Source of the DNA: an uncultured virus (IMG/VR IMGVR_UViG_3300002220_000736) | Lineage: Duplodnaviria; Heunggongvirae; Uroviricota; Caudoviricetes | IMG/VR virus record: IMGVR_UViG_3300002220_000736 | Reading direction: 5' to 3' (one strand) | DNA: 64,000 nt | Shown here: positions 12,601 through 62,714 of the stretch, in pieces | How the letters are laid out: each line of letters opens with the position of its first letter | How positions within the stretch are numbered: position 1 is the stretch's first letter | The notes under the pieces: model-generated | What the model was told of the DNA's origin: nothing | Seen by the model: only the letters and a program-made list of their open reading frames with translations | Databases searched by the model: none | Translations under genes and position numbers: made by a program

Positions 12601-12654
12601 TACTTATTTGTGAACCCTGTCGGACTATTCTGACAGGGTTTTTTAGGTAAAAGA
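12601..12654 (+). ncRNA. Conserved hairpin element, copy 1 (terminator-like with extended stem)
   Basis: AACCCTGTCGGA/TCTGACAGGGTT, outer TACTTA/TAGGTA, then AAAGA. Confidence 0.55.
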
Positions 12655-12677
12655 CAGTTATACTTTTACATGTTCCT

Positions 12678-14134: not shown

Positions 14135-14185
14135 TACTATTAGTACCCTGTCGGATTCGTTCGGCAGGGTTTTGTAGGTATAAGA
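14135..14185 (+). ncRNA. Conserved hairpin element, copy 2
   Basis: ACCCTGTCGGA-TTCG-TTCGGCAGGGT then TTTGTAGGTATAAGA; matches copy at 12601. Confidence 0.55.
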
Positions 14186-14210
14186 TATTAATCATTAAAA
14201 CTTATTTAAT

Positions 14211-35619: not shown

Positions 35620-35850
35620 ATGAATAAGCAAAACAGAAAAGAGTTAGAACATGCTTTACTATTAATAGATGAAGCAAAAGGGATCGTTGAGCAAATCCGT
35701 GATGAAGAACAGGAAAAATATGATAATCTTTCTGAAGGTTTACAGCAATCAGAAAAAGGACAAAAATTTGAAGCGAACGCAAGTGATTTGGATGAGGCTC
35801 TTAATAACCTAGAAGAAGCTATTGGAAATGTGAACAATTCATTAGAGTAA
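35620..35850 (+). CDS. Small helical hypothetical protein
   Basis: EEQEKYDNLSEGLQQSEKG. Confidence 0.7.
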   Translation: MNKQNRKELEHALLLIDEAKGIVEQIRDEEQEKYDNLSEGLQQSEKGQKFEANASDLDEALNNLEEAIGNVNNSLE

Positions 35851-37103: not shown

Positions 37104-37105
37104 TT

Positions 37106-37735
37106 ATGAAAATATTAAACTTATATGCAGGTATTGGGGGTAATAGAAAACTTTGGGGAACAGAACACGAAATAACTGCTGTTGAATTTGATGCAAGAAT
37201 AGCAGAAATCTACAAAGACTTTTACCCAAATGATACTGTTATAGTGGAAGATGCTCACCAATATCTTTTAGAACACTATAAAGAATTTGATTTCATCTGG
37301 AGTAGCCCCCCATGCCCTAGTCATTCTGGATGTAATTATTTTTTAAATGGTTCAGGGATTATACGATATCCTGATATGGGGTTGTACCAAGAAATAATAT
37401 TCTTAAAAACATTTTTCAAAGGCCGATACTGTGTTGAAAATGTTTCACCTTATTATGAACCTTTAATAAAACCACAAAAATTAGGAAGACATTGTTTTTG
37501 GACTAATTTTAGATTAAATAGAACAATACTTATCAGGGATAGTACAATAGGAAGAATGGGGCCCGTTAAAAGTTTAGGAGGAAAAAGTAGTCAAGGGTTA
37601 AATCACGAAAAGTTAGGGTTTGATCTTAGTAATAAAAAATACCCAAATAAAAAGAAACTTCTTAATAATTGTGTTGATCCTGAAATAGGTAAACTCATTT
37701 TAGAACAAGCTTTCCCAAAAACATTATTTTCATAA
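37106..37735 (+). CDS. Short C5-cytosine DNA methyltransferase
   Basis: LNLYAGIGG, SPPCPSHS, VENV. Confidence 0.85.
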   Translation: MKILNLYAGIGGNRKLWGTEHEITAVEFDARIAEIYKDFYPNDTVIVEDAHQYLLEHYKEFDFIWSSPPCPSHSGCNYFLNGSGIIRYPDMGLYQEIIFLKTFFKGRYCVENVSPYYEPLIKPQKLGRHCFWTNFRLNRTILIRDSTIGRMGPVKSLGGKSSQGLNHEKLGFDLSNKKYPNKKKLLNNCVDPEIGKLILEQAFPKTLFS

Positions 37736-37754
37736 TACAATTACCTTTCTGATC

Positions 37755-37967
37755 ATGAAAACAATTAACCTATCTAAAATTGACAAGTTAACCACGGACG
37801 ATATTCCGGTAATGTTCTGGTACAACGAACTGCTAAAATGTAGAAACGTCATAAAAGAAATGCCGTCAGAGTATTTGTTTCGCAGAATCCTTATGGGGCA
37901 GACTTTAATGGCTTGTTTGGATACGTTACAGATTGAGTTGATGCAAAATCCAATTTATCTGAATTAG
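37755..37967 (+). CDS. Hypothetical protein
   Basis: ORF track. Confidence 0.55.
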   Translation: MKTINLSKIDKLTTDDIPVMFWYNELLKCRNVIKEMPSEYLFRRILMGQTLMACLDTLQIELMQNPIYLN

Positions 37968-37969
37968 TT

Positions 37970-38491
37970 ATGGTTGAACAAGGCTTTTGGAAACCTGAAC
38001 CAAATAAATCAGATATTGTTTACACCCAAAGGAATGTAGGAAAACAAATAATACAATTTTTGCAACCTTCAGGACTTTGCCTTGACCCGTGCAAAGGTGA
38101 CGGGGCTTTTTACAAATATCTGCCTAAAGGTTCTGAGTACTGCGAAATACAAGAAGGATTGGATTTCTTTGATTATAATAAATCTGTTGAATGGGTAATT
38201 GGAAACCCACCGTACAGTATTTTTGAAAAGTTTCTAAAACATTCTTTTGATATTTCTAATAATGTCAGTTATTTAGTTCCTACAAATAAGATATTTCAAC
38301 GTTTGAAGATCATGGGAATGGTAAACGAATACGGAGGAATTAAAAGCATTATTGTTTATGGTTCTGGGCAGAACATAGGTTTTCCATTTGGGTTCAGTGT
38401 TGGTAATTTCCATTTTAAAAAAGGTTTTACCGGAAGAACACAAATTATAATGGGAAATAAAGAATTGCAAAAAGTATTAAAAAATAAGTAA
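37970..38491 (+). CDS. Small amino (N6A/N4C) DNA methyltransferase
   Basis: LDPCKGDGAF, DFF, IGNPPYS. Confidence 0.85.
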   Translation: MVEQGFWKPEPNKSDIVYTQRNVGKQIIQFLQPSGLCLDPCKGDGAFYKYLPKGSEYCEIQEGLDFFDYNKSVEWVIGNPPYSIFEKFLKHSFDISNNVSYLVPTNKIFQRLKIMGMVNEYGGIKSIIVYGSGQNIGFPFGFSVGNFHFKKGFTGRTQIIMGNKELQKVLKNK

Positions 38492-38805
38492 TGGAAATTT
38501 ACGAATTAACCGAAAATCAATTAAAAGCATTCAAGGCTCTAAAAAGTGCTGCAAATAAATGCACAAAGCTAAAAATTGGATTTTTCAATATTTTAGACAC
38601 TACTCATGCTTATAATAAAGATATGATTGAGATTATAGATGTAGATGCAAATTTTGAATTGCCATGCTCCGAATTTGGTTATCCGTATGAAACAATGCCA
38701 ACAATAGGGGGATGTTCTTTTGCTGACGACCAAAATCTACATTCAATTAAACTTACTGCAAAAGGTAGAAAGGTATTCAATTTTGAAAATAATGAAAATG
38801 AGTAA
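38491..38805 (+). CDS. Hypothetical protein
   Basis: ORF track. Confidence 0.6.
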   Translation: MEIYELTENQLKAFKALKSAANKCTKLKIGFFNILDTTHAYNKDMIEIIDVDANFELPCSEFGYPYETMPTIGGCSFADDQNLHSIKLTAKGRKVFNFENNENE

Positions 38806-40189
38806 CGGAGGACACATACACGCAGAAAACATCTGGGACGCTTATACTTTGCTGCACGAAGGAACGCTGGCTTTGGCCGAAGTTGAGCAGCAAGGTATGA
38901 GGGTTGATGTTGATTACATCCTGAAAAAGAATATTTGGATTGACAAGAAAATTGCAAAGCTTGAATCAATCATTTATGAATCAGAGTTTTTTGAAAACTG
39001 GAAGAAGTTTCATAAAGGCAAGGTAAACATTTACAGCCCTGCTCAAATGTCATCTTATTTGTACGATGGTCTTGGAATAAAAATAGCTAAGTCAACTGCA
39101 TCCGGTGGGGGTTCTACTGATGAAGAAGCTTTGGGGGCATTAGGTATTTCCGAACTTGATACGTTTCTGGAAATTAAGAAATTAAAGAAAGTCAAAACAA
39201 CCTATCTGGGTGGGTTCTTGCGTGAACAGGTTGACGGTTTTATTCATCCATTTTACAATTTGCAGTTAGCTGTGAGTTTCCGTTCCAGTTGTTCCGCACC
39301 AAACCTTCAAAACGTGCCAATCAGGGATGAAGAAACGATGAAACTTTGCCGTCAGGCTTTGTATCCAAGAAAGGGGTTTCAGTTGTTAGAACTTGATTAT
39401 TCCCAATTGGAAGTCAGAATTTCAGCTTGCGTAAATAAAGACCCTACATTATTACATTATTTGGAAACAGGTCACGACATGCACAAGGATATTGCAATAC
39501 AAATATTTAATTTAAAAAAGTATGACCCTGAAATACACAGCACACTAAGAAAGTCTGCTAAAAATGGATTTGTGTTTCCTCAATTTTATGGGGATTATTA
39601 TAAAAAGAACGCAAAGCTAATTGCTGAAGGGTGGTGCAAACTTCCTGAAACAGTTTGGAAACGTGGTCAGGGCATTGGTGTAGGGAATCAAAAAGTTTCT
39701 GATATTCTTATTGATGGGGGAATTAATTCTTACACTAAATTTACTAATCACTTGCAGGAAATAGAAGCTGATTTTTGGGGGAACAGGTTTCCTGTGTACG
39801 ATAAATGGAAAGATACTTGGTGGAAAGAATATCAGAAGAATGGTTATTTCCTGTCCAAAACAGGGTTTTTGTTTAAAGGGGTGATGTCAAAAAATGAAGC
39901 ATGTAATTACCCAATCCAATCAAGTGCTTTCCATGTTATGCTTTGGTCACTTATTAAGGCCACGGAAGCATTTAAGAAATACAAAATGAAAACTAGGATT
40001 GTTGGTCAAATCCATGATTCTATTTTGCCAGACACACACCCAAAAGAACGTGAAAACGTTATCGAAATTATGAAACAGATAATGGAAAAAGATGTAAAAA
40101 AGGCTTGGCCGTGGATCATAACTCCATTAAAAGTTGACGTTTCCGTATGTCCTGTTGATGGTAGCTGGGCGGAAAAGAAAGAAATATAA
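38792..40189 (+). CDS. Family A DNA polymerase, polymerase domain
   Basis: PNLQNVP, LDYSQLEVR (motif A), RKSAKNGFVFPQFYG (B), QIHDS (C). Confidence 0.93.
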   Translation: MKMSNGGHIHAENIWDAYTLLHEGTLALAEVEQQGMRVDVDYILKKNIWIDKKIAKLESIIYESEFFENWKKFHKGKVNIYSPAQMSSYLYDGLGIKIAKSTASGGGSTDEEALGALGISELDTFLEIKKLKKVKTTYLGGFLREQVDGFIHPFYNLQLAVSFRSSCSAPNLQNVPIRDEETMKLCRQALYPRKGFQLLELDYSQLEVRISACVNKDPTLLHYLETGHDMHKDIAIQIFNLKKYDPEIHSTLRKSAKNGFVFPQFYGDYYKKNAKLIAEGWCKLPETVWKRGQGIGVGNQKVSDILIDGGINSYTKFTNHLQEIEADFWGNRFPVYDKWKDTWWKEYQKNGYFLSKTGFLFKGVMSKNEACNYPIQSSAFHVMLWSLIKATEAFKKYKMKTRIVGQIHDSILPDTHPKERENVIEIMKQIMEKDVKKAWPWIITPLKVDVSVCPVDGSWAEKKEI

Positions 40190-42628: not shown

Positions 42629-44104
42629 ATGGCAAAAGTAAAAAGTCGTGTGGGTAGTTTTCGTGGAAAAGTATCCGCTAACACAGCAAAAAGAAAACAA
42701 GGCGGAAGCTTCAGCTACCTTGCACCGCCTAAAGGGGTTGAGGTATTTGTACCGGAAGCAGACAATCAGTATGTAGTTGACTTTATGGTTTATCAGGTTT
42801 CTATCAAAAATCACCCTGATAGGGATGATAAAAATGGAGTCGCTATCAAAGGTGAATACTGGTACAAACTACCATTCAAAGTTCACCGCAATGTTGGTGT
42901 AAGAAATGAGAAAGTTGTTTGTCCCCAATCGTTCGGTAAGCCTTGTCCAATTTGTGATTACAAAGCTGATTTGAAAAAGAACGATGGTGACGAAGATGAA
43001 ATTAAAGGTCTGAACACAAGCGAAAGAAACCTGTACGCTTTGCGTTTGCCATTGGACAAAAAGAACAAAGGCAAAAATTTTATATACGATGCTTCTGATT
43101 ACATGTTTCAGGAAGACTTTGAATCACAGTTAAAACGTGACGATCGCTGGGAAACATTTATTCACCCATCTGAAGGTTGTTCAGTTAAACTGACGTTTGA
43201 TGAAGACAGTTTCGCAGGTCACAAATTTGCAAAAATCACACGATTTGATTTTGAAGCACGTGTGAAACAGTACGAGGATGATGTTCTTGATGAAATTCCA
43301 ATTTTGGAAGAATGTCTTACTGTTCTTTCCTACGACCAGTTAAAAGCTAAGTTCTTTGAAGCAGGGGAAGAAGATGACGAGGAAGAGGATGAAAAACCAG
43401 CAAAGAAAGCAGCCAAACCAACAGCTAAAAAACCTGCTCCGGTAGAAGACGAGGAAGAGGATGAAGATGAAGAGGATGAAGAGGATGAAGAAGAGGAAGA
43501 AGAGGAAGAAGAAGAGGAAATTGATCTTTCTGAGGACATTGAATCTTGTAAAAAAGTTTCAGAGTTACTTACAATTGCAACCGAAAATCCTGATGTTTTC
43601 AAAAAACACATGAAAACATTGAAAACTTTCGACAAAGCTTCCAAATTGAAAGCAGCGATGCTTGAAATCATTGCACCGGAAGAGGAGGAAGAAGACGAGG
43701 AGGAAGAAGACGAGGATGATGGAAGAGAAGACATTATTTTGGAAATAAATGAAGCTTCAAATATTTCTGAATTACTTGCCATTGTAAAAGCAAATCCACA
43801 ATACTACAAAGCACATCTGAAAGAACTTCGTGAGTTCGTGAAAGTCAAAACAATGAAAGCACGGATGATCGAACTGCTTAACGATGATCTCCCTTTTGAT
43901 ACGAAGGAAGCTGAAAAGACACCTTCTAAAAAACAAGAAGTCGTATCACGCAAAAGACGAACAGAAGAAGAACCTAAAAGTTCTAAAGTAGAAACGGGCA
44001 AATGCCCACACGGTCACAAGTTCGGAGTAGACAACGATGAATATGATGAATGCGATGCTTGTGAATTATGGAAAGAGTGCTATAAAAAATCAAAGGAAAA
44101 ATAG
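42629..44104 (+). CDS. gp32-like single-stranded DNA-binding protein with long acidic tail
   Basis: VHRNVG...VVCPQSFGKPCPIC Zn site; acidic tracts; terminal CPHGH...CDAC...C. Confidence 0.8.
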   Translation: MAKVKSRVGSFRGKVSANTAKRKQGGSFSYLAPPKGVEVFVPEADNQYVVDFMVYQVSIKNHPDRDDKNGVAIKGEYWYKLPFKVHRNVGVRNEKVVCPQSFGKPCPICDYKADLKKNDGDEDEIKGLNTSERNLYALRLPLDKKNKGKNFIYDASDYMFQEDFESQLKRDDRWETFIHPSEGCSVKLTFDEDSFAGHKFAKITRFDFEARVKQYEDDVLDEIPILEECLTVLSYDQLKAKFFEAGEEDDEEEDEKPAKKAAKPTAKKPAPVEDEEEDEDEEDEEDEEEEEEEEEEEIDLSEDIESCKKVSELLTIATENPDVFKKHMKTLKTFDKASKLKAAMLEIIAPEEEEEDEEEEDEDDGREDIILEINEASNISELLAIVKANPQYYKAHLKELREFVKVKTMKARMIELLNDDLPFDTKEAEKTPSKKQEVVSRKRRTEEEPKSSKVETGKCPHGHKFGVDNDEYDECDACELWKECYKKSKEK

Positions 44105-47390: not shown

Positions 47391-48023
47391 ATGAAAATAA
47401 TAAAAAGGAAAAGAGGGGTTATTCATTACTGTAAATGCGGTTGTGGTGGGGTTGTTTCCTTTTATAGGGGGAAGCCAAGAGATTTTATACAGTATCACCA
47501 TATTCAAACAGAAAGTAATAAAAAAATCCACGCTGAACGAATGCAAGGGAATTTATTGTTCAAAGGGAAGAAACACACTAAGGAAGCAAGACAAAAAATA
47601 TCAATAAGTCAAACTGGTAAAAATAACTCCATGTGGTGTGGGGGTATTGGAATAGCCAGTGGGGGGTATAGAATGGTGTACATGCCAGAACATCCCTTTT
47701 CAGATATCAACGGTAAAGTACATGAAGAAAGAATGGTAATGGAAAAAGTTCTGGGTAGATTCTTACTCCCTTATGAAACAGTTCACCACATAAATCACAT
47801 AAAAACGGATAATGAGATTTGTAATTTACAAGTAATGTCAAGAAAAGAACACAGACAATTACATAATCGTTTAATGTGGGAAACAAGAAGTCATTTATTG
47901 TCAGAAAAAATTAAAAAAAGAATGAGTGATAGTCATAAAGGAATTAAACCATCTGATGAAACTAAGCTAAAAATGAAACATTCTGCAAAACTTATTTGGG
48001 AGAAAAGGAGGTCATCATGTTAG
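47391..48023 (+). mobile_element. Free-standing HNH homing endonuclease with NUMOD3 repeats
   Basis: VHHINHIKTDNEICNL; KHTKEARQKIS and SDETKLKM. Confidence 0.88.
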
Positions 48024-49060
48024 TTAGTGTGGAAATTTTCAACTTCCAAAGTCACAAACACACTATTATTAATTTATCCAAAGGGGTTAATATTTTTAAT
48101 GGTTTAAGTGACAAAGGAAAGACAGCAATCAAAAGAGCAATCGGATGGGTTATTGACAACAAGCCATCCGGTGATGCTTTTCGTAGTCATTGGGGTGGAA
48201 ATACAGTAGTTGAATTATCCTTTTCTGATGGGAATGTTATCCGGAGAACAAAGTCAAATACAGAAAATTCGTACACAATAAACAACGAAGTTCCATTAAA
48301 AGCTTTTGGTCAGGGTATGCCAGACGAAGTTAAGAAAATACTAAATTTGGAAAGTGTTAATATTCAATCCCAAATGGATGCTCCGTTCTTGCTTAGCGAA
48401 ACTGCCGGAGAAGTAGCTTCTCACTTTAATCGAATTGCTGGAATTTCTATCATTGATAAAAGTATTTCTAAGGCTAAAAGTGCTGTATCCAAAACAAAGC
48501 TGGGGATTGAACAAAGAGAAAATGACCTGCAAGAAAAAATGGAGCAGCTAAAGAACTATGAAACTTTGCCAGATCTTCAAAAAAGAATAAGCACGTTAGA
48601 AAGGAAAGACACAACAAAGAAAAATGAATACGCTGAATTGATTGCACTGAAAAACAAAGTTTCCAGATTGGTTGAGATTGAAAACGATTTGGATGAAGTT
48701 GAAGACTTTTTGCAGATAGAAAAGCCAGTCGCCTTGTTGGTGGTAAAGAAAAAAGAAATAGTTGAGAAGAAAGTAGAAATTCAAAAGATGAAACGCCAAA
48801 TAGATAAAATAGACCTTATCTATGGAACACTCGAAGCAACTGAGAAATTAATAGGTCTTGAACCCAAAGTAAACGACCTGTTACGAAAGCAAAAAGACAT
48901 CAAGCAATTCCAAGCCGAAATTAAGCCTTTAAATGGTCTAGTGGTGCGATATACCAATCTGACTAAAATACTTGAAGGAAACGAAAGGAAACTAACTGAA
49001 TTACTTAGTTTGATTCCAAATGTATGTCCGATTTGTAAAGGTACAGGTAAATTAAAATAA
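48017..49060 (+). CDS. SbcC/Rad50 N-terminal half (Walker A, coiled coil, Zn hook)
   Basis: NFQSH, GLSDKGKT, ends CPICKG. Confidence 0.88.
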   Translation: MLVSVEIFNFQSHKHTIINLSKGVNIFNGLSDKGKTAIKRAIGWVIDNKPSGDAFRSHWGGNTVVELSFSDGNVIRRTKSNTENSYTINNEVPLKAFGQGMPDEVKKILNLESVNIQSQMDAPFLLSETAGEVASHFNRIAGISIIDKSISKAKSAVSKTKLGIEQRENDLQEKMEQLKNYETLPDLQKRISTLERKDTTKKNEYAELIALKNKVSRLVEIENDLDEVEDFLQIEKPVALLVVKKKEIVEKKVEIQKMKRQIDKIDLIYGTLEATEKLIGLEPKVNDLLRKQKDIKQFQAEIKPLNGLVVRYTNLTKILEGNERKLTELLSLIPNVCPICKGTGKLK

Positions 49061-49577: not shown

Positions 49578-49765
49578 AAACTTACAAAATTTGGATAGAC
49601 AGCACACATATTGTAAAAGTGGAAGGGTCTTGTATTATCTTTAATTCTGAATCAAAATCTTTTGAAATTTATGATGGTGATTCGAAATTATCTGATTTAC
49701 GTGCGATAATTTCAAATGCACTAATGATCGGCATAGAAGATTTAGAAAGAGAGGATTTACTATGA
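49574..49765 (+). CDS. Hypothetical protein
   Basis: Coupled ORF. Confidence 0.5.
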   Translation: MKTYKIWIDSTHIVKVEGSCIIFNSESKSFEIYDGDSKLSDLRAIISNALMIGIEDLEREDLL

Positions 49766-50628
49766 GCAAGCAAAAGAAAGCTGATGCAATCCTATGTGGT
49801 GATATTCACTTGCGAGAAGACACCCCTGTTTGTAGAACGGATGATTTCTTAGCTGCACAATGGAAAAAACTCACATTCATTTCTGAACTTCAAATACAAC
49901 ACAACTGTCCTATTCTTTGTTCAGGCGATCTATTCGACAATGCCAAACCTTCCTTGTGGTTAGTTAGCATGGTTTCTAAGATGATTCCTTCAAATTTCCA
50001 TACGGTTTATGGAAACCATGATCTTCCAAACCATTCTATGAAAGAGCAAGAAAAATGTGGTGTGTTCAATTTGTGGATTAATGGTAAAATAAAAGTACTT
50101 GACGGTGTCCATTTTAATCAAACACCTGAAGAACCCAGCATAACCATTAAAGGACGTAAAATACTTGTATGGCACGTAATGACCTACAAATCAGAACTAC
50201 CATATCCCGGATGTACTGATTTAAAAGCACGTTCAATCCTTCATAAATATCCTGAGTATTCTATGATTTTGACAGGTGATAATCATCAACCTTTCACACA
50301 AGAGTATAGGGGGAGATTGTTGGTAAATCCCGGAAGTATGATGCGACAAACAGCAGACCAAATAAATTATAAACCTGCCGTGTGGTTGTACTATGCTGAC
50401 ACAAATACAGTTGAACCAGTTTATCTTCCAATTGAAAAAGGAGTTGTTACCCGTGAACATCTTGATGTGTTAGTAGAAAAAGAAAATCGAATAATGGCCT
50501 TTATTGAAACACTAAATAGGGAAGGTTTGGATTTTGTAAACTTTAAGCAGAATCTTAAAGTATTCTTTCAACGCAATGATGTTGATCAAAAAGTTAAAGA
50601 TATTGTCCACGAAATGATTGAAGAATAA
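49762..50628 (+). CDS. SbcD/Mre11 metallophosphoesterase nuclease
   Basis: GDIH, GDLFD, GNHD, GDNH, NPGS. Confidence 0.92.
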   Translation: MSKQKKADAILCGDIHLREDTPVCRTDDFLAAQWKKLTFISELQIQHNCPILCSGDLFDNAKPSLWLVSMVSKMIPSNFHTVYGNHDLPNHSMKEQEKCGVFNLWINGKIKVLDGVHFNQTPEEPSITIKGRKILVWHVMTYKSELPYPGCTDLKARSILHKYPEYSMILTGDNHQPFTQEYRGRLLVNPGSMMRQTADQINYKPAVWLYYADTNTVEPVYLPIEKGVVTREHLDVLVEKENRIMAFIETLNREGLDFVNFKQNLKVFFQRNDVDQKVKDIVHEMIEE

Positions 50629-51553: not shown

Positions 51554-52162
51554 ATGAACATATTTGAAGCAAAGAAGCTAATACAACAAAGAGAAGGGCG
51601 CAAAATTGAATTAGAGGATTCAATAGAACAAACAATAGTCCGTATCCGGAAAGATAAGAAGTATCAAAAGAATCTGGAAAAAGCACACGAAATTTTAAAA
51701 CAGGTCGGCCTACAAACCCAACAACAGCTAATCTATCATATTTCCGATGTTACTTCTGTTGCATTGGAAAGTGTGTTTGACGAACCTTATAGATTGGTTC
51801 TGGATTTTGTTGAGAGAAGAAACAAAAACGAATGTGATATTTTGTTTGAAAAGAATGGTGAAAAGATTGATCCTATGTTAGCCAGTGGTGGGGGTGTAGT
51901 TGATTTGGCCGCATTCGCTTTGAGGATCGCAAGTTGGTCAATGCAAATTCCACCAACACGAAGTATCATTATTCTAGATGAACCATTTAAACACCTCAGC
52001 AAAAACCTGCACACTAGGGCAAGTGAAATGGTAAAACTGCTAGCTGACAAATTAGGGATTCAGTTTATCATTATTACACATGAATCTGCATTAAGCACAT
52101 ACGCAGATCGCACATTTGAAGTAACCCAAAGGAAAGGCATTTCACGAGTTAAAACCACTTAA
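51554..52162 (+). CDS. SbcC/Rad50 C-terminal half
   Basis: ASGGG signature, IILDEP Walker B, IITH. Confidence 0.9.
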   Translation: MNIFEAKKLIQQREGRKIELEDSIEQTIVRIRKDKKYQKNLEKAHEILKQVGLQTQQQLIYHISDVTSVALESVFDEPYRLVLDFVERRNKNECDILFEKNGEKIDPMLASGGGVVDLAAFALRIASWSMQIPPTRSIIILDEPFKHLSKNLHTRASEMVKLLADKLGIQFIIITHESALSTYADRTFEVTQRKGISRVKTT

Positions 52163-54315: not shown

Positions 54316-55536
54316 TTAAGTGATCGTTACGGTAAATGATTTTCCTTGTAATGATGTTCTTGCTGCAACACCATCATAACCTCCGCTGGTGGTGTCTGGG
54401 TCGGCATTTGTGCCACCAATGTTGATAACGCGGCTGGCAAATCCTCCGGCTGACATTGTATCAAGGTTAACAAGCATTTCATTGACTACTGCTGCGCTCC
54501 AACCATTACCCTCAAAGTGCCATGCCAATGATGCAAGTCCTGTTTTTAATTTTGAAACATCAACTACTCCTGTTATTCCTGTGGATTGTAAATTTAAATT
54601 TCTTACAAAACCTGTAATTGTTGAAGCAGGAAAAGTAACTCCTGTTAATGATGGATTTGAGTTTAAGGTAACGACGCCTGTGTCATTGTAGGTTGTAAAC
54701 ATCGACAAATCCAATACACCTGAAATACCTGTTGAATTTATTGCGATTTGTGCCATTGTTCCTGTAATCGAACTTGCAAATGTTACCCCCGTCATTGATG
54801 CGTTAGAGTTTATTAAAATATTTCCTGATGTACTGAACTTGTTTAGTCTGGTTAAATCTAACACGCCAGTAATGCCAGATGAATAAAGCGATACGAAAGC
54901 CAATGCCCCTGTATATGAACTTGCAAATGTCACACCTGTAACCGATGGAGTTAAATGAAGTTGTATATCTGCGGTGGATGTGAATTTTGTAAACATTTGT
55001 ATGTCAACCACGCCTGAAAGACCTGTCGATTGAAGTTGAAGCGTAGAAACAGTCCCAGTAATAGTTGCAGGAAACACAACATTTGTCATACTTGTATTCG
55101 TATGTAATATCCACGAAGTCATTGTTGAAAATACAGAGTTTGACAAATCTAACGTACCAACTATATTATCATCACTGATATTAATAGACGTAATTATACA
55201 AGTTCCTTTTCCATATAACTTGACCGTTCTGGTTGCTGTCGTTAAATATGTATGTGAAACTGCCTTATCGCCAACGGCAACAGATCCGTCCCCAAAATCC
55301 CACGCATATTGCCCTGAAGTTGCCGTAATTACAGGGTCAAAAGTTGTACTGTTTGGTGAGTTGTTTTGAAATTCAGCAATAAGAAACCATCCATCAGCCG
55401 GATTGATTGGTTTCCAAATCACCGGAGAATCTGGATCGTCAGGATCAAAATAGTTATTGATTGGGCAATACGTTGCAGGGTCAGGATCTCCACCTGATCC
55501 ACCGTACGGTAATATACATCTTCCTATTCTGCTCAT
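54316..55536 (-). CDS. Putative receptor-binding protein: PKD domain + LRR-like ~49-aa repeats
   Basis: WDFGDG; repeated ITGVLDL...NxSxTGVTF. Confidence 0.7.
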   Translation of the reverse strand: MSRIGRCILPYGGSGGDPDPATYCPINNYFDPDDPDSPVIWKPINPADGWFLIAEFQNNSPNSTTFDPVITATSGQYAWDFGDGSVAVGDKAVSHTYLTTATRTVKLYGKGTCIITSINISDDNIVGTLDLSNSVFSTMTSWILHTNTSMTNVVFPATITGTVSTLQLQSTGLSGVVDIQMFTKFTSTADIQLHLTPSVTGVTFASSYTGALAFVSLYSSGITGVLDLTRLNKFSTSGNILINSNASMTGVTFASSITGTMAQIAINSTGISGVLDLSMFTTYNDTGVVTLNSNPSLTGVTFPASTITGFVRNLNLQSTGITGVVDVSKLKTGLASLAWHFEGNGWSAAVVNEMLVNLDTMSAGGFASRVINIGGTNADPDTTSGGYDGVAARTSLQGKSFTVTIT

Positions 55537-56183: not shown

Positions 56184-56552
56184 TTACTTTTTATAAAATC
56201 CTAGTAATAAAACCATTCCTGTATTTGTAGGATTTATTGTAAGCACTTCAAACTGTGCTAGAAAAACACCAAAATCATAAGGTATCGCCCCTTGCATCAG
56301 TTCAGCATCCGTTGACTCACACAATTGTTCTGTAATTATCATATCTTCAGGGCATTTGTACTCGAACGGAATTGTATCTATGAAATTTAAAGCTATGACA
56401 AACGTGTAATCAGTCAATTCCGTTGTAGCTGATTTCAGGATAGTTTCTATAACTTTTTCCTTATGTACAAAGGTAGAACTATTGAAATTTTGAGATCCCT
56501 GCTTTTTTGCTGGGAGCTCCCCTTTAAACTTTCTTGTAACGACTACATCCAT
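56184..56552 (-). CDS. Hypothetical tail-region protein
   Basis: Coupled ORF. Confidence 0.6.
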   Translation of the reverse strand: MDVVVTRKFKGELPAKKQGSQNFNSSTFVHKEKVIETILKSATTELTDYTFVIALNFIDTIPFEYKCPEDMIITEQLCESTDAELMQGAIPYDFGVFLAQFEVLTINPTNTGMVLLLGFYKK

Positions 56553-56881
56553 TATGTCAGATTTATCACATCAGAATTGTTATACTCTTCTAAGTCAATA
56601 TCATATTCATCTTCTGTCAAAAGCATCCGAAACGATGTCAACAGAAAGGGCTTATCACTTTGTTTACCATCAGAAAACATTTGGAATGGTTTCAAAATCC
56701 TTGCATCATGTATCGTACTTGATATTTTTTGCCTTGATTTGTTTAGTACTTGAAATTTGTTTATCATCAGTAAATCAACCAACGGCAAAAATCCACTTGA
56801 AGCCCCCGTAATTTCACCACCAGATAAGGCTGAATTAATCGTAATTTCATCAGGTTCAAATGTTTCTATTGTAACTGCCAT
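56552..56881 (-). CDS. Chimeric ORF: N-terminal FN3 strands + probable tail protein C-terminus
   Basis: MAVTIETFEPDEITINSALSGGEITG then FLPLVDLL...DIDLEEY. Confidence 0.65.
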   Translation of the reverse strand: MAVTIETFEPDEITINSALSGGEITGASSGFLPLVDLLMINKFQVLNKSRQKISSTIHDARILKPFQMFSDGKQSDKPFLLTSFRMLLTEDEYDIDLEEYNNSDVINLT

Positions 56882-56892
56882 AATATACGAAT

Positions 56893-59445
56893 TTAAAATT
56901 TTCTAACAAAACGAAAATAAATAGTTGTGTGTGTTTTTTGCCAATAAGTAGAATACCCATTATTGTACCCGCCATAAATTACAATAGGGGTGACTAAGGA
57001 ACTAAAATCAATAGCGTAACAATATTTGTAAGCTCGCCCCCACCCATAAGGTTCAGTAGATGTCCAATAATGAAATTTTTCAAAACCTCCTATAACATCA
57101 CGATTAGCCCAAATTGCTTTCAATTCATTGTAACTAGGTAAAAACCAATCATTATAAAAGTTATTTACCCTATAAGGAACTAATTTAGACAATCCTTGTT
57201 GCCCTTGTCTTGGGTTCGCCAAAATTGCTTCGGTATTGGCAAAACCACCACCAATTATGATTCTGTTTGCATCACTTGTGTAAGGTCCACCTCCTGAAGT
57301 TACACCAATCCTATCACGGTATTGATAATCAGAAACAATAAGACCATGAATTTGTCCTGCAATATAACCATCATCCCCAGGTTGAAAAATGTAGCCAATA
57401 GTGCCTCCACCATATTTACTCCCCACAACTAAATTTAGAGTAGTAAATGAATAAGTTCCACTTAGGATAGACGGCAAAGTAGCGTACACAACATTGCCTT
57501 CCCCATCAATGGCGTACGCACGAACATAGTAAAGCGTGTTAGGGTTCAACCCTGTCATTCGACTATTAAATGTTCCAAAACCAGTACCATTGATTGTATG
57601 AGGATCAGCTATTGTAGGAGGATTATTTGTTGAACTATAACAAACCCCTCTTTGATTCACAACAGTTCCATCAGCTAAAATACCCCAACGTTCTGTTCTT
57701 TTGTCAAGGTCAGTTCCACGAAGAATGGAATTTTTATATGAATAACTTTTTGAATCGTATAAATCTAAAGAAATAGATTCTTTATTCACAAAGTTCGGTT
57801 CAAAAGTTCCTTCAATAACATTGGCTTGAATATTTCCTGTTTCGGAAACAATAAAATCACCAAAGTATGCCCACTGTACTTGAAACATCATTGGGTTTTC
57901 AGCATCATAATCATCAGGAAAATTAGCCTGTTCCCATTGTTTTTGTTCTTCCGATTGTTCGGTAAGATACATTGTTACAGCCCCAAAACCAATAGTTATT
58001 AATTGATCCCCACTTAGATTTCCTAAAAGATAATCTGGATTAAAGACATCATATTTTTCAACTAAGCCTAATGGAATTGATATGTTTACATTGACACTTT
58101 GTGTTGTTGATTCAAAAGAAGAACCACTGATTTCCACATATTGAACAAAGCTTTCAGATGTTTCAGAGTATTCTGTCCTATAAGTTTTTTCATCCTCTTC
58201 CGATTCATTCGCTACAATATATAAATGCTCCGGATTGATCCGTACATAATAATGAAAACGAAATGTGTAATCTTTGAAACGCCATGTATTTTCAGGAAAA
58301 GGTTTTCCAGTTATCACATACCCAAATTGAATTTCTATGGAAGTATCCTCAGATAAAACTGTGGTTTTTATTGTCGTGGATAAGCCTTCAGATATTGGGT
58401 AAGGTACAAAAGAAGAAGCTGGACGCCTGTAAATAGCATTATTAAGTACAGAATAAGGCTGACCAGCATTATCCCAAAGAATATCCGATTGTACCCATGT
58501 TCTAACTTCAGGTGTATTTTCCGGATCTCCATCAAAAACAACGCCTGATAAATCACCATTTACTAGATTTTCAAATCTTTTATCTTGTAAGTCAATTCGT
58601 AGTTTCTTTATTCCAGGATTTACAGCTAACGTTTGTGCCGTTTCAGTAAACACAAGATCATGAACTTCTAAAACAGTATTTGTTATAGGAACAACATCAC
58701 CAGATGCCGGAACTAAAGAAATTATAGAGTACTCCACATAATCAACCGAAGTATTCCAAATATCTGAATAACGTTCAATGTACCAAAAATCATCAAACCA
58801 ATATAAAACACAATTAAAGGATATTAATATTGTTTTTAGTATTTCTAAACTGGTTGTTCTTTCTACATTATCCTCCCAAAACAATTCTGTGAAAACTCCA
58901 TTTTTATCAAAAAGAGTATACCCAGCTTCTAAGGTGTCCCCTTCTGCACGTAAAATAGAATTAATGCGTATAGGAAAATCTGCTCCAGTTGATCTTAGAA
59001 TTTCATCAATAATTTCAATAAATGTGATGTTCTTTAACGTGTCGATACTTACAGGATGTTCATCTTGCAACTTGGACAGGAAACCACTGGCAACAAAATT
59101 AATAGATTGTCTTTTTAGATATTTTTGGTAAACTTGATCACAATTTAAAAAGCCTGTGAATAAAGAAATAGTTTCTGGTTCGATTGTAACTACTCTAACC
59201 TTGTATTCCCTTTCTTTAGCATACATTAAAGGAAGAAGGGTGAAAAAGTCTGTTTCTAAATTCATTAAAGAAAATTCCAATGTCATCCCTAACAATGGTT
59301 GTTGTGTATTTGTAGTTATGGAAAACCCATCTCTTTTTAAAACTAATTCGGAAGAAGTTCCTGCATAATCAATTTTATCTATATACAAATACCCTTTCTT
59401 AGTATCTGAATGCCATCCTGAATAATATATATTTCCGTATGCCAT
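56893..59445 (-). CDS. Tail (distal/hub) protein fused to partial FN3 + DUF1566-like C-type lectin domain
   Basis: Follows TMP; RGVCYS...TGLNPNTLYYVRAYA; DWFLPSYNEL, YWTSTE, RFVRKF. Confidence 0.8.
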   Translation of the reverse strand: MAYGNIYYSGWHSDTKKGYLYIDKIDYAGTSSELVLKRDGFSITTNTQQPLLGMTLEFSLMNLETDFFTLLPLMYAKEREYKVRVVTIEPETISLFTGFLNCDQVYQKYLKRQSINFVASGFLSKLQDEHPVSIDTLKNITFIEIIDEILRSTGADFPIRINSILRAEGDTLEAGYTLFDKNGVFTELFWEDNVERTTSLEILKTILISFNCVLYWFDDFWYIERYSDIWNTSVDYVEYSIISLVPASGDVVPITNTVLEVHDLVFTETAQTLAVNPGIKKLRIDLQDKRFENLVNGDLSGVVFDGDPENTPEVRTWVQSDILWDNAGQPYSVLNNAIYRRPASSFVPYPISEGLSTTIKTTVLSEDTSIEIQFGYVITGKPFPENTWRFKDYTFRFHYYVRINPEHLYIVANESEEDEKTYRTEYSETSESFVQYVEISGSSFESTTQSVNVNISIPLGLVEKYDVFNPDYLLGNLSGDQLITIGFGAVTMYLTEQSEEQKQWEQANFPDDYDAENPMMFQVQWAYFGDFIVSETGNIQANVIEGTFEPNFVNKESISLDLYDSKSYSYKNSILRGTDLDKRTERWGILADGTVVNQRGVCYSSTNNPPTIADPHTINGTGFGTFNSRMTGLNPNTLYYVRAYAIDGEGNVVYATLPSILSGTYSFTTLNLVVGSKYGGGTIGYIFQPGDDGYIAGQIHGLIVSDYQYRDRIGVTSGGGPYTSDANRIIIGGGFANTEAILANPRQGQQGLSKLVPYRVNNFYNDWFLPSYNELKAIWANRDVIGGFEKFHYWTSTEPYGWGRAYKYCYAIDFSSLVTPIVIYGGYNNGYSTYWQKTHTTIYFRFVRKF

Positions 59446-59447
59446 TT

Positions 59448-62400
59448 TTAGAATGATTTTTGAAATTTACCCATTTCATTTAAAATACCAACAAGTTCCC
59501 GTCCTTCTATTACAAACCTAACTTCTTGTTTATTATTTCCACTATCTTTCCCGAAGATTTCAGACACTTTGTTCAAAGGTATTACCGTTTCGCCACTTGT
59601 AAGCATAGCTGGGAAGGAATCGTTAGGAAACCCACTAGGAACCATTCCGCCAGTTGCCATACCAGTAGCTTTAGATTTTTTAGAAGAGTTTGAAGATAAA
59701 GCAATGGCAATAGCAGCAATTCCAGCAAGTGCCAACCCAATTCCAACAATAGGTATCCACGCAACCGAACTAGCAGCCCCAGCAACAGCAGCACTTGTAG
59801 AAGCAGCAGCTTTTGTTGTTTCCGCACCGGCAGCAGCTAATGTGATAGGTATACCGCTTGCAGTTGCTATGTTCTTTGCTTTTTCAGCAGCAGCCGATAA
59901 CTTTGTGACTTTTGTAATAGCTTCTATAACACGAAGTACCCCAGATATGATTTGAGCACCTTCTTGAAAAATACCAAAAAGTTCCTGAAAACTATCTCCC
60001 ATGTATTTAGCAACAGTATTTGCCAAAGACCCTAAAGAAGAAAACAAACTTTTCCAAGCTGATAAAAGTTGTGTGCTTTGATTTACTGTTTCATTTAACT
60101 CATTGAATTTTTTTATCATTTGCTGAACAAGGTCTATTTGTTCAGGCGACATCAAATCCATTTTTTCCTTACTTGTTAAAGTATCTAACGCCCCTTGAAG
60201 GATACTGACATCTTGTGCAGCCTTGTTGTACCCATCCCCTAATATATTGGCAATGTCCGCATTATCCTGCAATGCTTTATTTGTGTTGGAAAAAACTGCA
60301 TTAAGTTCTTCCGATTCTGCTATTGTTTTTGCAAACAGATTTCCTTTAGCTATCCTTTTGTCTAAATTAGATAAATCAAAAAATTGTGGGGATGTTTCCT
60401 TTATTTGTTTCATAGCTGGGCTATCTTCTACTTTTTTCTTGGTCGGATAAAATGTTTCTACTGATACCCCTAATGGTTTTATAGGGGCGTTGTCAAATTG
60501 TGCCTTAGCTTGGTTGATCAATTCATCCTGTTTCTTTTGGATTTTGTCCAAAGCAAACCATTCACGGGATAGTTGTTTCAATCTTTTTCCTGATGCTGTA
60601 TCCATCAAGGTCGTTAAAGCACTTATTTGTTCTGCTAATGTTTTTACTTCTTTTCCTGAATCAGTAGCACCAACAACAATTGGTTTTCCTGTTGCTTTAT
60701 CAATAGCAACAGTTATTTCATCAATCACTTTAATTTGATCTTTTCCTCCTTCAACTACTTTTTGTGTTTCATCATACATTTTGTTTAAGTAGGCCGTTTG
60801 AAGCACATAATTTTTCCTACTTTTTTCTGCTTGTTTATCCTCAGCCTGTTCTACTAATTCAACACCAGTTCTTACAAAAGATAAAGCCCCAACTACTTGT
60901 AATAAAACACCTTTCACTTTATTGATTTTCCTATCATCACCACTCATGGTACTTGACAGGTAATCCTTTTCCACGGATACTTGTTTTTGCTGGATAGCTT
61001 CTAACTTAGCTTTATTCCTAAGACTTTCTACATAAGTGTTTATTGCAGTAGTTGCAGCAACCGTTTTTAAAGTTTCAGAATCAATAAAACCCAAGTATTC
61101 AGGAGATATAGAATTTATTTGTCTTATGGCAGATTCCCTTGCTTGCTTGCTTGCATTTTCACTATTAGCCAAACGCAACAAGTTAGTTAATGCGACCTTT
61201 TCTTGTATAATGTTTTTGTTTGCCTGTTCCATTACATCTGACAAAATTTGTTGTGTTGCCGATGCTTTTTTAGCAGATGATGTGAATAACATGAAAGCAG
61301 CCGAAGCAAATAAAATTGCTTGTAAAAGAAACATTAAAGGGTGTGCAGAAAAAGCAGCCCACAAACGCAAGACAACTCCAGTTAAGAAAGTCAAAGCCCC
61401 AATCAACGCTGTGACAGCCCCTTGAAGTAATCCTAAAATAAGCAAAACAGGGCCAAGAGCAGCAAGAATTCCTGCCCAAAGTATGATAGTTTTTTGTTGT
61501 GATGATGTTAGATTTGAAAAACTATTTGCAAGCCTTTCAATAAACCTAGCAACTGATTGTATCAATCCTATTAATGGCTCTCTAATAGCTTCCCCTATTT
61601 TAACCAAAGATGCTTGCATACTTGAAACCGACCTATTCCAACGATCCATAACAGTACCAGTGATAGACTGTATCCCATCAGCTAAAGATCCTGCCGAATT
61701 TTTGGTTGCATCTAGCACCTTTACCAAATTTGAAAAGTTTGGCCCCATCATATCCAATACAGGAAGTAAGGCTCTAATATTGGTGAAAACATCTCCTAAA
61801 ACAGTAATATTGTCTTCATACGCTTTTGTGTTTTGTAGGACGTCTAAAGTGTTGCCCCCTACCATCTTTTTCAAAGCTTCGACAAAAGCAAGCATACCAT
61901 CATCACGTAAAACTTTACGTAAATGAGCAAAAGAAATGCCCACCTTTTCCAAAGCAGCTTCCGCTCTAGGAGGCTGTTGTACTAATGTTGTGAACAAACG
62001 TGCCATTTGGGTGGAAGCTTCAGCAGCACTTTTTCCTGATAATGTCAAAGTAGCTAAAGACCCTGCAACTTCATCAAATTCAACACCTAACTGAACAGCT
62101 AAAGGCATCACCTTTCCTATTACTCTTCCTAAAGCATCTGCCTCCCCTTTACCTTCACGTACCGCAGCAACTAAAATATCAGTTGCTTGCCCTGCCGTGA
62201 TAGCAGTATGCCCATAAGCATTTAAAACACTGGTTACAGCATCAGCAACAGCTTTAGTATCACCAAGACCAATTCTAGCAGCATCAGCAGATTTCTTTAA
62301 AATGTCCATTGCTAATGCAGTTTCCCTTATACCAGAAGACCCTATGAAATATAAACCTTCCGCTAGTTCTTTAGGGGCTTTTCCTACTTTGCCAGCAAGA

Positions 62401-62714
62401 TTTAAAAGTTCATTGGACATGTCGTGTATTTGGCTTCCTGTAAAATTCGTCAAAGCTGCCATTTTTCCTAAAACTTGCTCGAATTTTGCAAACGACGTCA
62501 CAGCAGCCCCACCAAGTAATGACATAGGAACGGTAACAAATTGTGTCAACATTGTTCCTGTCAACATCATTTGAGAACCCAAAGATTTAAAGGAAGCATT
62601 CATTGCTGCATTAGATCCGATCACCTGTGATTCAAACCGCCTCATGTTCACAGCAGCGCGTGAAAGCCCTGCGGTATTTACTCCTAACATTACCTCAAAA
62701 GATCCTAGATTCAT
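59448..62714 (-). CDS. Tail tape measure protein
   Basis: 1088 aa, Ala-rich helical, TM segments, MATGGMV...AMLTSGETVIP. Confidence 0.93.
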   Translation of the reverse strand: MNLGSFEVMLGVNTAGLSRAAVNMRRFESQVIGSNAAMNASFKSLGSQMMLTGTMLTQFVTVPMSLLGGAAVTSFAKFEQVLGKMAALTNFTGSQIHDMSNELLNLAGKVGKAPKELAEGLYFIGSSGIRETALAMDILKKSADAARIGLGDTKAVADAVTSVLNAYGHTAITAGQATDILVAAVREGKGEADALGRVIGKVMPLAVQLGVEFDEVAGSLATLTLSGKSAAEASTQMARLFTTLVQQPPRAEAALEKVGISFAHLRKVLRDDGMLAFVEALKKMVGGNTLDVLQNTKAYEDNITVLGDVFTNIRALLPVLDMMGPNFSNLVKVLDATKNSAGSLADGIQSITGTVMDRWNRSVSSMQASLVKIGEAIREPLIGLIQSVARFIERLANSFSNLTSSQQKTIILWAGILAALGPVLLILGLLQGAVTALIGALTFLTGVVLRLWAAFSAHPLMFLLQAILFASAAFMLFTSSAKKASATQQILSDVMEQANKNIIQEKVALTNLLRLANSENASKQARESAIRQINSISPEYLGFIDSETLKTVAATTAINTYVESLRNKAKLEAIQQKQVSVEKDYLSSTMSGDDRKINKVKGVLLQVVGALSFVRTGVELVEQAEDKQAEKSRKNYVLQTAYLNKMYDETQKVVEGGKDQIKVIDEITVAIDKATGKPIVVGATDSGKEVKTLAEQISALTTLMDTASGKRLKQLSREWFALDKIQKKQDELINQAKAQFDNAPIKPLGVSVETFYPTKKKVEDSPAMKQIKETSPQFFDLSNLDKRIAKGNLFAKTIAESEELNAVFSNTNKALQDNADIANILGDGYNKAAQDVSILQGALDTLTSKEKMDLMSPEQIDLVQQMIKKFNELNETVNQSTQLLSAWKSLFSSLGSLANTVAKYMGDSFQELFGIFQEGAQIISGVLRVIEAITKVTKLSAAAEKAKNIATASGIPITLAAAGAETTKAAASTSAAVAGAASSVAWIPIVGIGLALAGIAAIAIALSSNSSKKSKATGMATGGMVPSGFPNDSFPAMLTSGETVIPLNKVSEIFGKDSGNNKQEVRFVIEGRELVGILNEMGKFQKSF

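Follow-up and report, generated by a model that had tools for sequence, protein, structure and literature searches.

A rotated FN3-lectin cassette that seems to divide a phage tail-tip gene into two mutually dependent chains

The gene that directly follows the tape-measure gene of this phage is probably the product of an old, single insertion in which a rotated FN3-lectin cassette entered a surface loop of a tail-tip protein and has since become fixed, turning one chain into an obligate two-chain protein; we put the probability of this reading at about 0.75. Phage tail tips often gain sugar-binding modules, and the ways that have been described are in-frame loop insertion and fusion to an end. 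The present layout suggests a third way of gaining a module: the host gene is interrupted by a rotated cassette, and parts of two domains end up in each of the two resulting chains. If true, this would be an undescribed route for inserting a module with distant ends, kept by selection across a whole phage radiation. The features are listed below in coordinates of the window, i.e. the whole 64-kb stretch of DNA that was analysed; A and B denote the body and the C-terminal segment of the tail protein, and C and D the first and the remaining part of the FN3-lectin.

59448..62714, minus strand: tape-measure protein gene (1088 aa); PF10145, 89.5 bits against a cut-off of 33.2
56893..59445, minus strand: large ORF A-D (850 aa); tail-tip body, last ~70% of an FN3-like domain and putative lectin
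57682..59445, minus strand: part A (residues 1-588, end ...TERWG), post-tape-measure tail protein body; full-length alignment to single-chain relatives
57439..57681, minus strand: part D1 (~residues 589-669), FN3-like domain without its first ~25 positions; FN3 model, NF049889, hhalign
56896..57438, minus strand: part D2 (~residues 670-850), putative DUF1566/Lcl_C-like lectin domain; Lcl_C, hhalign, PDB 8q4e
56893-56895, minus strand: stop codon of A-D
56882..56892, minus strand: 11-nt spacer from the A-D stop to the C-B start
56552..56881, minus strand: small ORF C-B (109 aa), 11 nt after A-D
56804..56881, minus strand: part C (small-ORF residues 1-26), first ~25 FN3-like positions; FN3 model, hhalign
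56555..56803, minus strand: part B (residues 27-109 of the 109-aa ORF), C-terminal segment of the tail protein; match to P0026
56552-56554, minus strand: stop codon of C-B
56804..57681, minus strand: inserted cassette of 878 nt (D, stop, spacer, C); sequence arithmetic

The tape-measure gene also matched 20 PHROG families, with tape measure as the commonest annotation, and a relative of it lies upstream in 35 related loci that include both long and short forms of the tail protein. A preliminary description of this DNA had pointed to the two ORFs and proposed that tail-protein sequence in the 850-aa protein gives way after residue 588 to an incomplete FN3-like domain and a DUF1566/Lcl_C-like lectin, and that the small ORF supplies the rest of the FN3 domain at its start and the C-terminus of the tail protein at its end. 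Both ORFs are present at the coordinates given, and model coverage and the match to P0026, reported below, confirm this partition. The three outcomes that the description had named as refuting (no homologue with B next to A, no completion of FN3 by residues 1-26, a misassembly) were each checked, and each check favoured its interpretation. Its arithmetic was correct on recount: the 878 nt between the codons of Gly588 (57684-57682) and Gly26 (56806-56804) consist of 786 (D), 3 (stop), 11 (gap) and 78 (C). The cassette junctions carry an uncertainty of ~5 residues per side, and the two halves overlap by 4-5 positions when placed on intact domains.

Most relatives of the post-tape-measure tail-tip protein are one chain of ~640-720 aa in which A is followed by B. 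Single-chain relatives of 637-720 aa can be aligned to the entire part A, and the single-chain protein P0026 ends in a segment (residues 580-657) that shares 41% identity with residues 31-108 of the small protein (BLASTP, E 7e-21). Many homologues were found in which B is contiguous with A; among the database representatives listed, 85 of 150 have A-B in one chain with the same B segment at their ends. Complete viral loci of this short form number 15, and four short forms (P0026-P0029) were found beside the long-form clusters. The A/B boundary of the relatives is a short variable loop after an almost invariant Trp. This loop has 5-18 aa (mode 9) in 90 of the 91 measured rows, and one protein (P0185) carries in the same place an in-frame insert of 254 aa, for which an atlas search gave no name. 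Judged by these alignments, the insertion site is a permissive loop. The tail protein defines a large family, still without a name, whose members follow the tape measure and have gained adhesins at three or more hot spots. Part A, or A-B, had no Pfam or PHROG match in any of the 24 members and no NCBIfam match, and part A matched no solved structure by sequence; a search of the cultured-phage collection gave no relative of part A and one weak match to the FN3 part. The atlas leads Prophage_tail and Sipho_Gp37 for the tail protein scored 0.87, below the trusted 0.9, and were discarded.

The end of the large protein, D2, is predicted to be a lectin with a sugar-binding function. Pfam Lcl_C (PF07603) matches residues 764-848 of the 850-aa protein (P0001) with 17.4 bits, below the gathering cut-off of 34.9; homology of D2 to DUF1566/Lcl_C carriers was nevertheless found. 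PF07603 is precomputed on many close relatives, D aligns with intact FN3-lectins at an hhalign probability of 100% (E 1e-52), and the family profile matches PDB 8q4e, “HbP1” (E 1.9e-9), a name that we could not trace in the literature. The intact relative P0067 is matched by NF046116 adhesin_Lcl (E 4e-16). Stand-alone FN3 + DUF1566 lipoproteins (P0067, P0065, P0050) have this FN3-like domain and this lectin in the order seen in the large protein. Each of them, however, is one chain in which the FN3 domain is intact and which has a signal peptide and a lipobox, while part C has no signal peptide. To judge from named records and large contigs, these stand-alone FN3-lectins probably come from Bacteroidota.

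The FN3-like domain is where the two ORFs complement each other. We built our own FN3-like model (94 positions) from 119 intact domains of unrelated proteins, and in all six loci tested A-D covers positions 24/29-94 and C-B positions 2/3-24/27, with no single chain matching the model end to end. At this locus, D1 takes up model positions 27-86 of 94 at residues 593-654, and C takes up positions 2-25 at residues 4-27 of the small ORF. Joining C and D in silico gave one match over 2/3-94 and raised the score by 12 to 17 bits over D alone (6/6 loci), compared with at most 1.1 bits for the native end of A and -1.3 to +4.8 bits for shuffled C; residues 1-26 of the small ORF, which the preliminary description had taken for the missing strands, behave as the first ~25 positions of the domain. 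Other profiles draw the same line. Pfam fn3 covers only 42-74 of its 84 positions on the large protein (11.3 bits against a cut-off of 25), and NCBIfam NF049889, whose N-terminal domain is FN3-like, matches with profile positions 59-124 at residues 592-657 of the 850-aa protein and with 1-128 in intact P0067. On the same intact protein, hhalign places C at residues 38-64 (probability 75%, E 2.6e-5) and D at residues 60-281, so that the two ranges abut. Moreover, the C-B profile matches the first ~25 residues of every repeat in six multi-FN3 proteins. By these profile matches, C and D are one FN3-like domain divided over two chains, with C, from its position in the domain model, probably supplying the first strands. 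Such complementary coverage, together with the repeated gene pair, is far beyond chance.

The products of A-D and C-B would then co-fold. B might pack back on A and complete the tail protein, while C would give D its missing first strands and complete the FN3 domain, and the adhesin would be anchored to the tail protein at a turn inside that domain. The chain break would coincide with the natural N- and C-termini of the adhesin. A two-domain module with distant ends could be accommodated in the loop in this manner, with the lectin pointing outward and probably binding host surface glycans. A more specific version, to which we give slightly better than even odds, is a reciprocal split: one crossover in a shared four-residue turn would have carried a rotated adhesin gene into the tail gene and yielded an obligate heterodimer in which both domains are rebuilt from both chains. 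In its boldest form, the strands would be donated to a neighbouring subunit and lock the tail-tip ring. Tail-tip proteins form oligomeric rings, and the linker between B and C has only ~8 residues, a geometry that may favour either partner. On the other hand, the FN3 turn where the chains meet keeps C and D of one pair close. Completion by C of the FN3 domain in an adjacent A-D subunit, with cross-linking of the ring, seems unlikely to us, although it is a variant of the preferred reading and does not exclude it.

One could also suppose that C is a leftover and B alone matters, so that the truncated FN3 domain of D would serve as a linker or be completed by other parts of the tail protein. Individual matches of C to the FN3 model are indeed modest (E 5e-5 to 3e-3 in an 18-sequence database), and only 12 of 22 small-ORF representatives match that model at E ~0.01-0.02 or better. 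However, mean pairwise identity among 29 distinct small ORFs is as high in C (0.39) as in B (0.40), and the conserved positions of C are exactly those conserved in intact FN3 domains. The start codon of C-B lies 1-3 residues before the start of the domain, in the nine distinct locus ORFs as in the listed representatives, and the native end of A, as noted above, adds almost nothing to the FN3 score. We consider a leftover C quite improbable.

The split form is widespread among relatives. The long-form architecture was found in 24 clusters including this protein, and the small ORF has 22 representatives (a word-indexed search with the 109-aa protein matched only itself, and a full HMM search was used instead). 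The small ORF lies 3-92 nt downstream of the large one in all nine distinct long-form loci, with spacers of 11, 12, 11, 12, 11, 3, 15, 92 and 85 nt. The frame relation across the spacer varies, and a fused single chain is absent from all 24 long-form clusters, which together argue for two polypeptides. At this locus, the spacer contains no terminator-like site, and the RNA fold of its region is no more stable than that of shuffled sequences (z = 1.04). Promoter-like sites occur at chance level (39 vs 39.2).

In the tree of the tail protein (A; FastTree, 118 rows, unrooted), the long forms need one change, with a support of 77. IQ-TREE gave the long-form branch of the equally unrooted A tree an SH-aLRT of 58, within a clade supported at 99 that includes four short forms. 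In the adhesin tree, the D modules of the 24 phage proteins make up one branch (support 100), and the clades within it follow those of the A tree. Relatives with as little as ~40% identity retain the same junctions, and A has diverged in step with D. On these trees, the split forms are one branch nested among single-chain forms and reflect one old event, with weak support in the A tree (58-77). The choice of gain of the cassette over its loss rests on parsimony; the trees are unrooted, and change counts by themselves cannot separate the two. The opposite course, in which the split form is ancestral and the single-chain A-B derives from it by precise loss of D, stop and C, would need several independent exact deletions, given that the long forms are a small nested branch (24 rows) among far more diverse short forms (87 rows). 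Further, the two halves of the cassette make up a domain that is intact in many unrelated proteins, which points to import. An ancestral split form is thus very improbable.

We infer that, in the ancestor of one clade, a single insertion placed a rotated cassette into the loop of the tail protein. The cassette would have carried the last 70% of the FN3-like domain and the DUF1566-type lectin up to a stop codon, then a short spacer, and after it a start codon with the first ~25 FN3 residues, and the outcome would have been two co-transcribed genes, A-D and C-B. The likeliest origins seem to be one crossover between the tail gene and a transient circle, or a mid-gene-to-mid-gene patch copied from two tandem FN3-lectin genes. 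The preliminary description had considered the integration of a one-gene circle and had noted GGG microhomology at the junctions. Of this, the circle is retained as a passing recombination intermediate at most and is dropped as a standing element, since 3-92 nt of non-coding DNA leave no room for a promoter or an origin. The microhomology is better placed at the protein level, where a T-x-D-G-like turn common to the FN3 domain and the tail loop may have guided the insertion. A point that weighs against this account is the signal peptide of the stand-alone FN3-lectins, which has no counterpart in C.

In formal terms an integrated circle would have this layout, and the cassette might be imagined as a mobile or switching element that is still active, with excision bringing back A-B and C-D in the manner of phase variation. 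Nevertheless, no integrase, invertase, transposase or reverse transcriptase was detected among the 53 ORFs scanned in the 64-kb window, nor were flanking repeats found around the cassette there. Contigs of four runs contained no alternative A-B or C-D junctions, though rare variants could escape contigs. The junctions are unchanged over the divergence described above, through which A and D evolved together, and a circle with 3-15 nt of non-coding sequence would lack space for control elements. We regard active switching as extremely improbable and rejected a site-specific switching cassette of the shufflon or phase-variation kind on the same grounds (no recombinase, no flanking repeats, no alternative junctions in contigs). 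The best reading is a fixed insertion and not a switch, which sustains the earlier expectation that the event is probably fixed: the split form is a single branch on both tail and adhesin trees. A diversity-generating retroelement was likewise discarded, with no repeat involving 56893-57100 and no reverse transcriptase among the 53 ORFs in 64 kb of the 74.9-kb contig (~11 kb lie outside). An assembly artefact or a chance resemblance counts as refuted by nine distinct loci with the same layout on different contigs (this one and eight independent others), by the 22 small-ORF representatives and 24 large-ORF clusters in the database, and by contigs of a second sample that bridge both junctions (56631-56927 and 56972-57726), the former passing the stop by 32 nt and barely exceeding our bridging rule of 31 letters. 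Some single-contig loose ends were seen in X2 at 57186, 57729 and 59536; the first two lie in conserved motifs and probably stem from different genes or different phages. The end of one X3 contig at 56806 is taken as chance at a depth of ~3, and uncovered parts in X3 and X4 carry no meaning.

Several known systems resemble parts of this arrangement. As far as the account in PMC7291167 goes, the evolved Dit proteins of siphophages hold a carbohydrate-binding module in a loop, which adds binding to host glycans. They share with the present case a binding module grafted into a loop of a tail-tip protein whose gene is beside the tape-measure gene, but the module described there is in frame and in one chain, while here it is rotated, brings its own stop and start, and results in two chains (PMC7291167). 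The present gene A-D likewise follows the tape-measure gene directly, and a stop and a new start stand inside the insert in 9/9 loci. Among the papers listed by full-text literature searches, none describes a tail gene split by a rotated adhesin cassette.

In split inteins (DnaE-n / DnaE-c), a host protein is spread over two genes, and the intein halves meet, splice themselves out and ligate the host halves. There as here, each of two genes bears one half of an insert, and the halves bring the host halves together. However, intein halves are in normal order with the break in mid-insert, whereas here the order is rotated and the break falls at the natural ends of the insert; further, the intein is removed, while the insert here is predicted to stay as a working adhesin. 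No Hint/intein family occurs among the Pfam matches listed for either ORF (E up to 1), and the pieces at the break are FN3 halves.

Subunits of chaperone-usher pili are Ig-like beta-sandwiches lacking one C-terminal strand, which is donated by the neighbouring subunit as the fibre is built. Donor-strand complementation, like engineered split FN3 or split GFP, has in common with the proposed assembly that a beta-sandwich is completed by strands of another polypeptide. In contrast to the pili, the part missing here is the first ~25 residues, and it would come from a dedicated small protein that also bears a piece of the tail protein. No natural case of such complementation was among the papers listed in our literature search. 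Confirmation of the two-chain assembly would give engineered split-domain tags a counterpart in nature. It would also be an annotation warning, as a “truncated” FN3 domain and a small downstream “hypothetical” ORF may be one machine.

Circular permutants arise when a gene is duplicated and then truncated, or through fission and fusion, and the known ones are single proteins with new termini. The order of the cassette is what one would expect from a mid-gene-to-mid-gene piece of two tandem copies or from a gene closed into a circle, but the permuted unit lies inside another gene and two domains are reciprocally split over two chains. A confirmed assembly would show cleanly how insertion can give rise to circular permutation. 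Finally, phage genes can be split by inserted genes, for example homing endonuclease genes, which are self-contained and selfish. They too leave an essential gene cut into two ORFs whose products must work together, but the inserted gene shares no domain with the products of the host gene. The same 64-kb window contains an example of a phage gene split by an inserted gene.

The window represents most of the genome of a siphovirus-like phage and encodes a portal protein, a terminase, a lambda-like tail tube protein, a gpT-like chaperone and a tape-measure protein, with no tRNA found in it. A preliminary description proposed that a circularly permuted FN3-lectin gene lies inside a tail gene here, with one FN3 domain and one tail protein each spread over two ORFs. 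We could confirm this observation, and the interpretation is supported. The genes concerned are:

59448-62714, minus strand: tape-measure gene
56893-59445, minus strand: 850-aa ORF, directly after the tape-measure gene; residues 1-588 (A) are the tail-protein body, the remainder (D) a partial FN3-like domain and a lectin
56552-56881, minus strand: 109-aa ORF, 11 nt after the 850-aa ORF; residues 1-26 (C) are the FN3 start, residues 27-109 (B) the tail-protein C-terminus

The 878 nt calculated between the two Gly codons are correct (Gly588 at 57684-57682, Gly26 at 56806-56804; 786 + 3 + 11 + 78 nt between). Neither a terminator-like site nor a stable RNA fold was found between the ORFs, and promoter-like sites do not exceed chance there.

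A single FN3-like domain is shared out over both ORFs, and the start of the small ORF matches the part absent from the 850-aa ORF. In a 94-position FN3-like model that we built from 119 intact domains of 72 unrelated FN3-lectin and multi-FN3 proteins, the large proteins cover positions 24/29-94 (6/6 loci, E 1e-20 to 1e-23) and the small proteins, at their residues 3-27, positions 2/3-24/27 (6/6 loci, E 5e-5 to 3e-3 in an 18-sequence database), while nothing significant was obtained with five short forms, i.e. tail proteins with A and B in one chain. When C was joined in silico ahead of D, one match over positions 2/3-94 resulted, with a gain of 12-17 bits at all six loci; the native end of A added at most 1.1 bits and shuffled C sequences between -1.3 and +4.8. 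Profile-profile alignments to an intact lipoprotein (P0067) placed C-B at residues 38-64 (probability 75%, E 2.6e-5) and A-D at residues 60-281 (probability 100%, E 1e-52). Moreover, a curated NCBIfam model beginning with the FN3-like domain matches over profile positions 1-128 in P0067 but only over 59-124 in the large ORF, and in six multi-FN3 proteins the C-B profile falls on the first ~25 residues of every repeat.

In most relatives, the tail protein consists of a single chain. Residues 1-588 as query yielded 28 protein clusters, the query included: 24 with the long architecture (20 of 812-863 aa, one of 773 aa, three of 1031-1072 aa with an extra N-terminal insert) and four short ones (642-694 aa), in which A continues directly into a segment matching small-ORF residues 31-108. 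This segment is the very C-terminus of the database protein P0026 (41% identity, E 7e-21), bearing out the suggestion that the small ORF ends with the tail protein's own C-terminus. A profile from six small ORFs, searched against 1.84 billion representatives, gave 210 matches at E <= 0.001.

Classes of profile matches, sorted from 150 listed of the 210
Single-chain A-B forms, B at the C-terminus: at least 85
Small C-B proteins: at least 22, one a 75-aa fragment
A-B with a further C-terminal extension: at least 7
Multi-FN3 proteins matched by profile positions 2-27 only: at least 6
Fragments: at least 28
Other: at least 2

The split layout is conserved and selected. In all nine distinct long-form loci (the window and the related loci L003, L004/L005, L006/L043, L007, L026, L027, L028 and L029) the small ORF is next downstream, and a fused A-D-C-B chain was absent from the 24 long clusters. 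The spacers between the ORFs differ in length (11, 12, 11, 12, 11, 3, 15, 92 and 85 nt), so that the reading-frame relation varies and the arrangement does not serve read-through or frameshifting. Among 29 distinct small ORFs, mean pairwise identity is 0.39 for C and 0.40 for B, and the conserved positions of C (T, I, A, GG, I/V, T) are those of the intact FN3-like domain. L026 was found on a contig of 33 kb assigned to a Candidatus Paceibacterota MAG, possibly a phage contig that was binned with it, and one short-form locus occurs twice (L036 and L037), ~69.6 kb apart, on a 165-kb metagenome contig that may be a concatemer assembly.

In trees of part A, one change suffices for the 24 long forms, which are nested within short-form diversity. 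Support for the long forms was 77 in FastTree (118 rows) and SH-aLRT 58 in IQ-TREE (66 rows), the latter grouping them with four short forms at a support of 99. Against 22 stand-alone FN3-lectins, all 24 long-form D modules are one branch (SH-aLRT 100), with inner clades that mirror the part-A tree. As support for the long-form branch on the A tree is low and the trees carry no root, a single old insertion is favoured by parsimony, though not proven.

The motif W-T-x-D-G is frequent in the short-form loop (exact in 17/94), and intact FN3 domains carry T-s-D-G-G at positions 23-27 (exact T-x-D-G-G in 25/119). A similar motif is kept at both split-form junctions, and the halves share 4-5 positions when aligned to intact domains, which fits a crossover within a short motif common to the FN3 domain and the tail loop. 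The partner might have been a passing circular copy of an FN3-lectin gene or a mid-gene-to-mid-gene patch of two tandem genes. As a free replicon, the one-gene circle proposed previously is unlikely, given only 3-92 nt of non-coding DNA. Stand-alone FN3-lectin relatives carry a signal peptide that C lacks.

A switching cassette was rejected: no alternative joints were seen in contigs of four runs from one study (contigs cannot reveal rare variants), no repeat was found at the cassette junctions, and the 53 window ORFs scanned included no integrase, invertase, transposase or reverse transcriptase, in line with the preliminary view that no recombinase is visible and the event is probably fixed. 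The window may derive from one of these four runs. An assembly artefact was dismissed because second-sample contigs bridge both junctions (56631-56927, reaching just 32 nt past the stop, and 56972-57726). Separately, run X2 showed three single-contig loose ends at 57186, 57729 and 59536, the first two probably from related genes sharing conserved motifs, and one contig of run X3 ends at the C/B junction coordinate 56806, probably by low-depth fragmentation.

The stretch from an almost invariant Trp to the start of B has 5-18 residues (mode 9) of variable sequence in 90 of 91 measured single-chain forms. Exactly in this loop, which holds the window's cassette, the 965-aa protein P0185 has a 254-residue in-frame insert (residues 614-866), for which neither a Pfam match nor a trusted Atlas lead was obtained. 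The family acquired C-terminal extensions at least five times. One of these gives a third architecture, the 768-aa protein of L008:5001-7307 / L031:2501-4807, in which single-chain A-B has a complete FN3-like domain (model positions 8-94) behind it, without lectin. Adhesin gain has a second hot spot near the N-terminus of A, where some long forms (P0019, P0024, L028:1775-4936) carry inserts of ~200-270 residues, that of P0019 including a Fib_succ_major domain (PF09603).

If B completes the tail protein and C the FN3 sandwich, the chains A-D and C-B should be an obligate pair, joined by complementation at two places; both this co-folding and the strands ascribed to C, assigned from its place in the domain model, are predictions. 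The adhesin would be attached via an internal turn of its FN3 domain, with the chain break at its natural ends, an arrangement in which the distal end of the lectin need not return to the loop. Systems comparable to the split form are split inteins, donor-strand complementation, permutation by duplication and genes interrupted by homing endonucleases. Full-text literature searches found no described case of a rotated adhesin cassette splitting a tail gene, nor of the present combination of domain grafting onto tail-tip proteins, gene fission, circular permutation and fragment complementation. The predicted lectin, of the DUF1566/Lcl_C kind by sequence, would bind host surface glycans like the modules inserted in evolved Dits, which are described as doing so (PMC7291167).

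Several other features were observed in the window. Two genes downstream of the C-B ORF, a 406-aa ORF (54316-55536, minus) with a PKD-like piece and internal repeats at ~147-150 nt spacing (families D4, D5) may be a fibre or receptor-binding protein. The DNA polymerase gene (35850-40189, plus) is likewise split, though in the ordinary way and without permutation: the break falls exactly at a single position of its family profile (phrog_17, 479-830 in ORF 35850-37103 and 831-1235 in ORF 38720-40189), with two DNA methyltransferase pieces (37106-37735 and 37970-38491) between the halves. An HNH endonuclease ORF (47391-48023, plus; NUMOD3 + HNH_3) extends into the start of an SbcC-like ORF (47996-49060). 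Past an SbcD-like phosphoesterase (49762-50628) there is a separate ATPase piece (51554-52162, plus) that has an SMC_N C-terminal match. ORFs 31766-32971 and 42629-44104 (plus), both without a Pfam match, have long Asp/Glu-rich repeat tracts in common (31990-32577, 43420-43732), flanked by a similar stretch of 40 nt (families D1-D3). A 48-nt element in two copies 77% identical (12614-12661 and 14145-14192, plus; family D6) consists of a GC-rich hairpin and a subsequent T run and looks like a terminator. Just ahead of ORF 14868-15467 lies a type-P3 twister ribozyme (Rfam RF03154; 14786-14858, plus), matching the full model 1-73 with 51.9 bits against a gathering score of 39.9.
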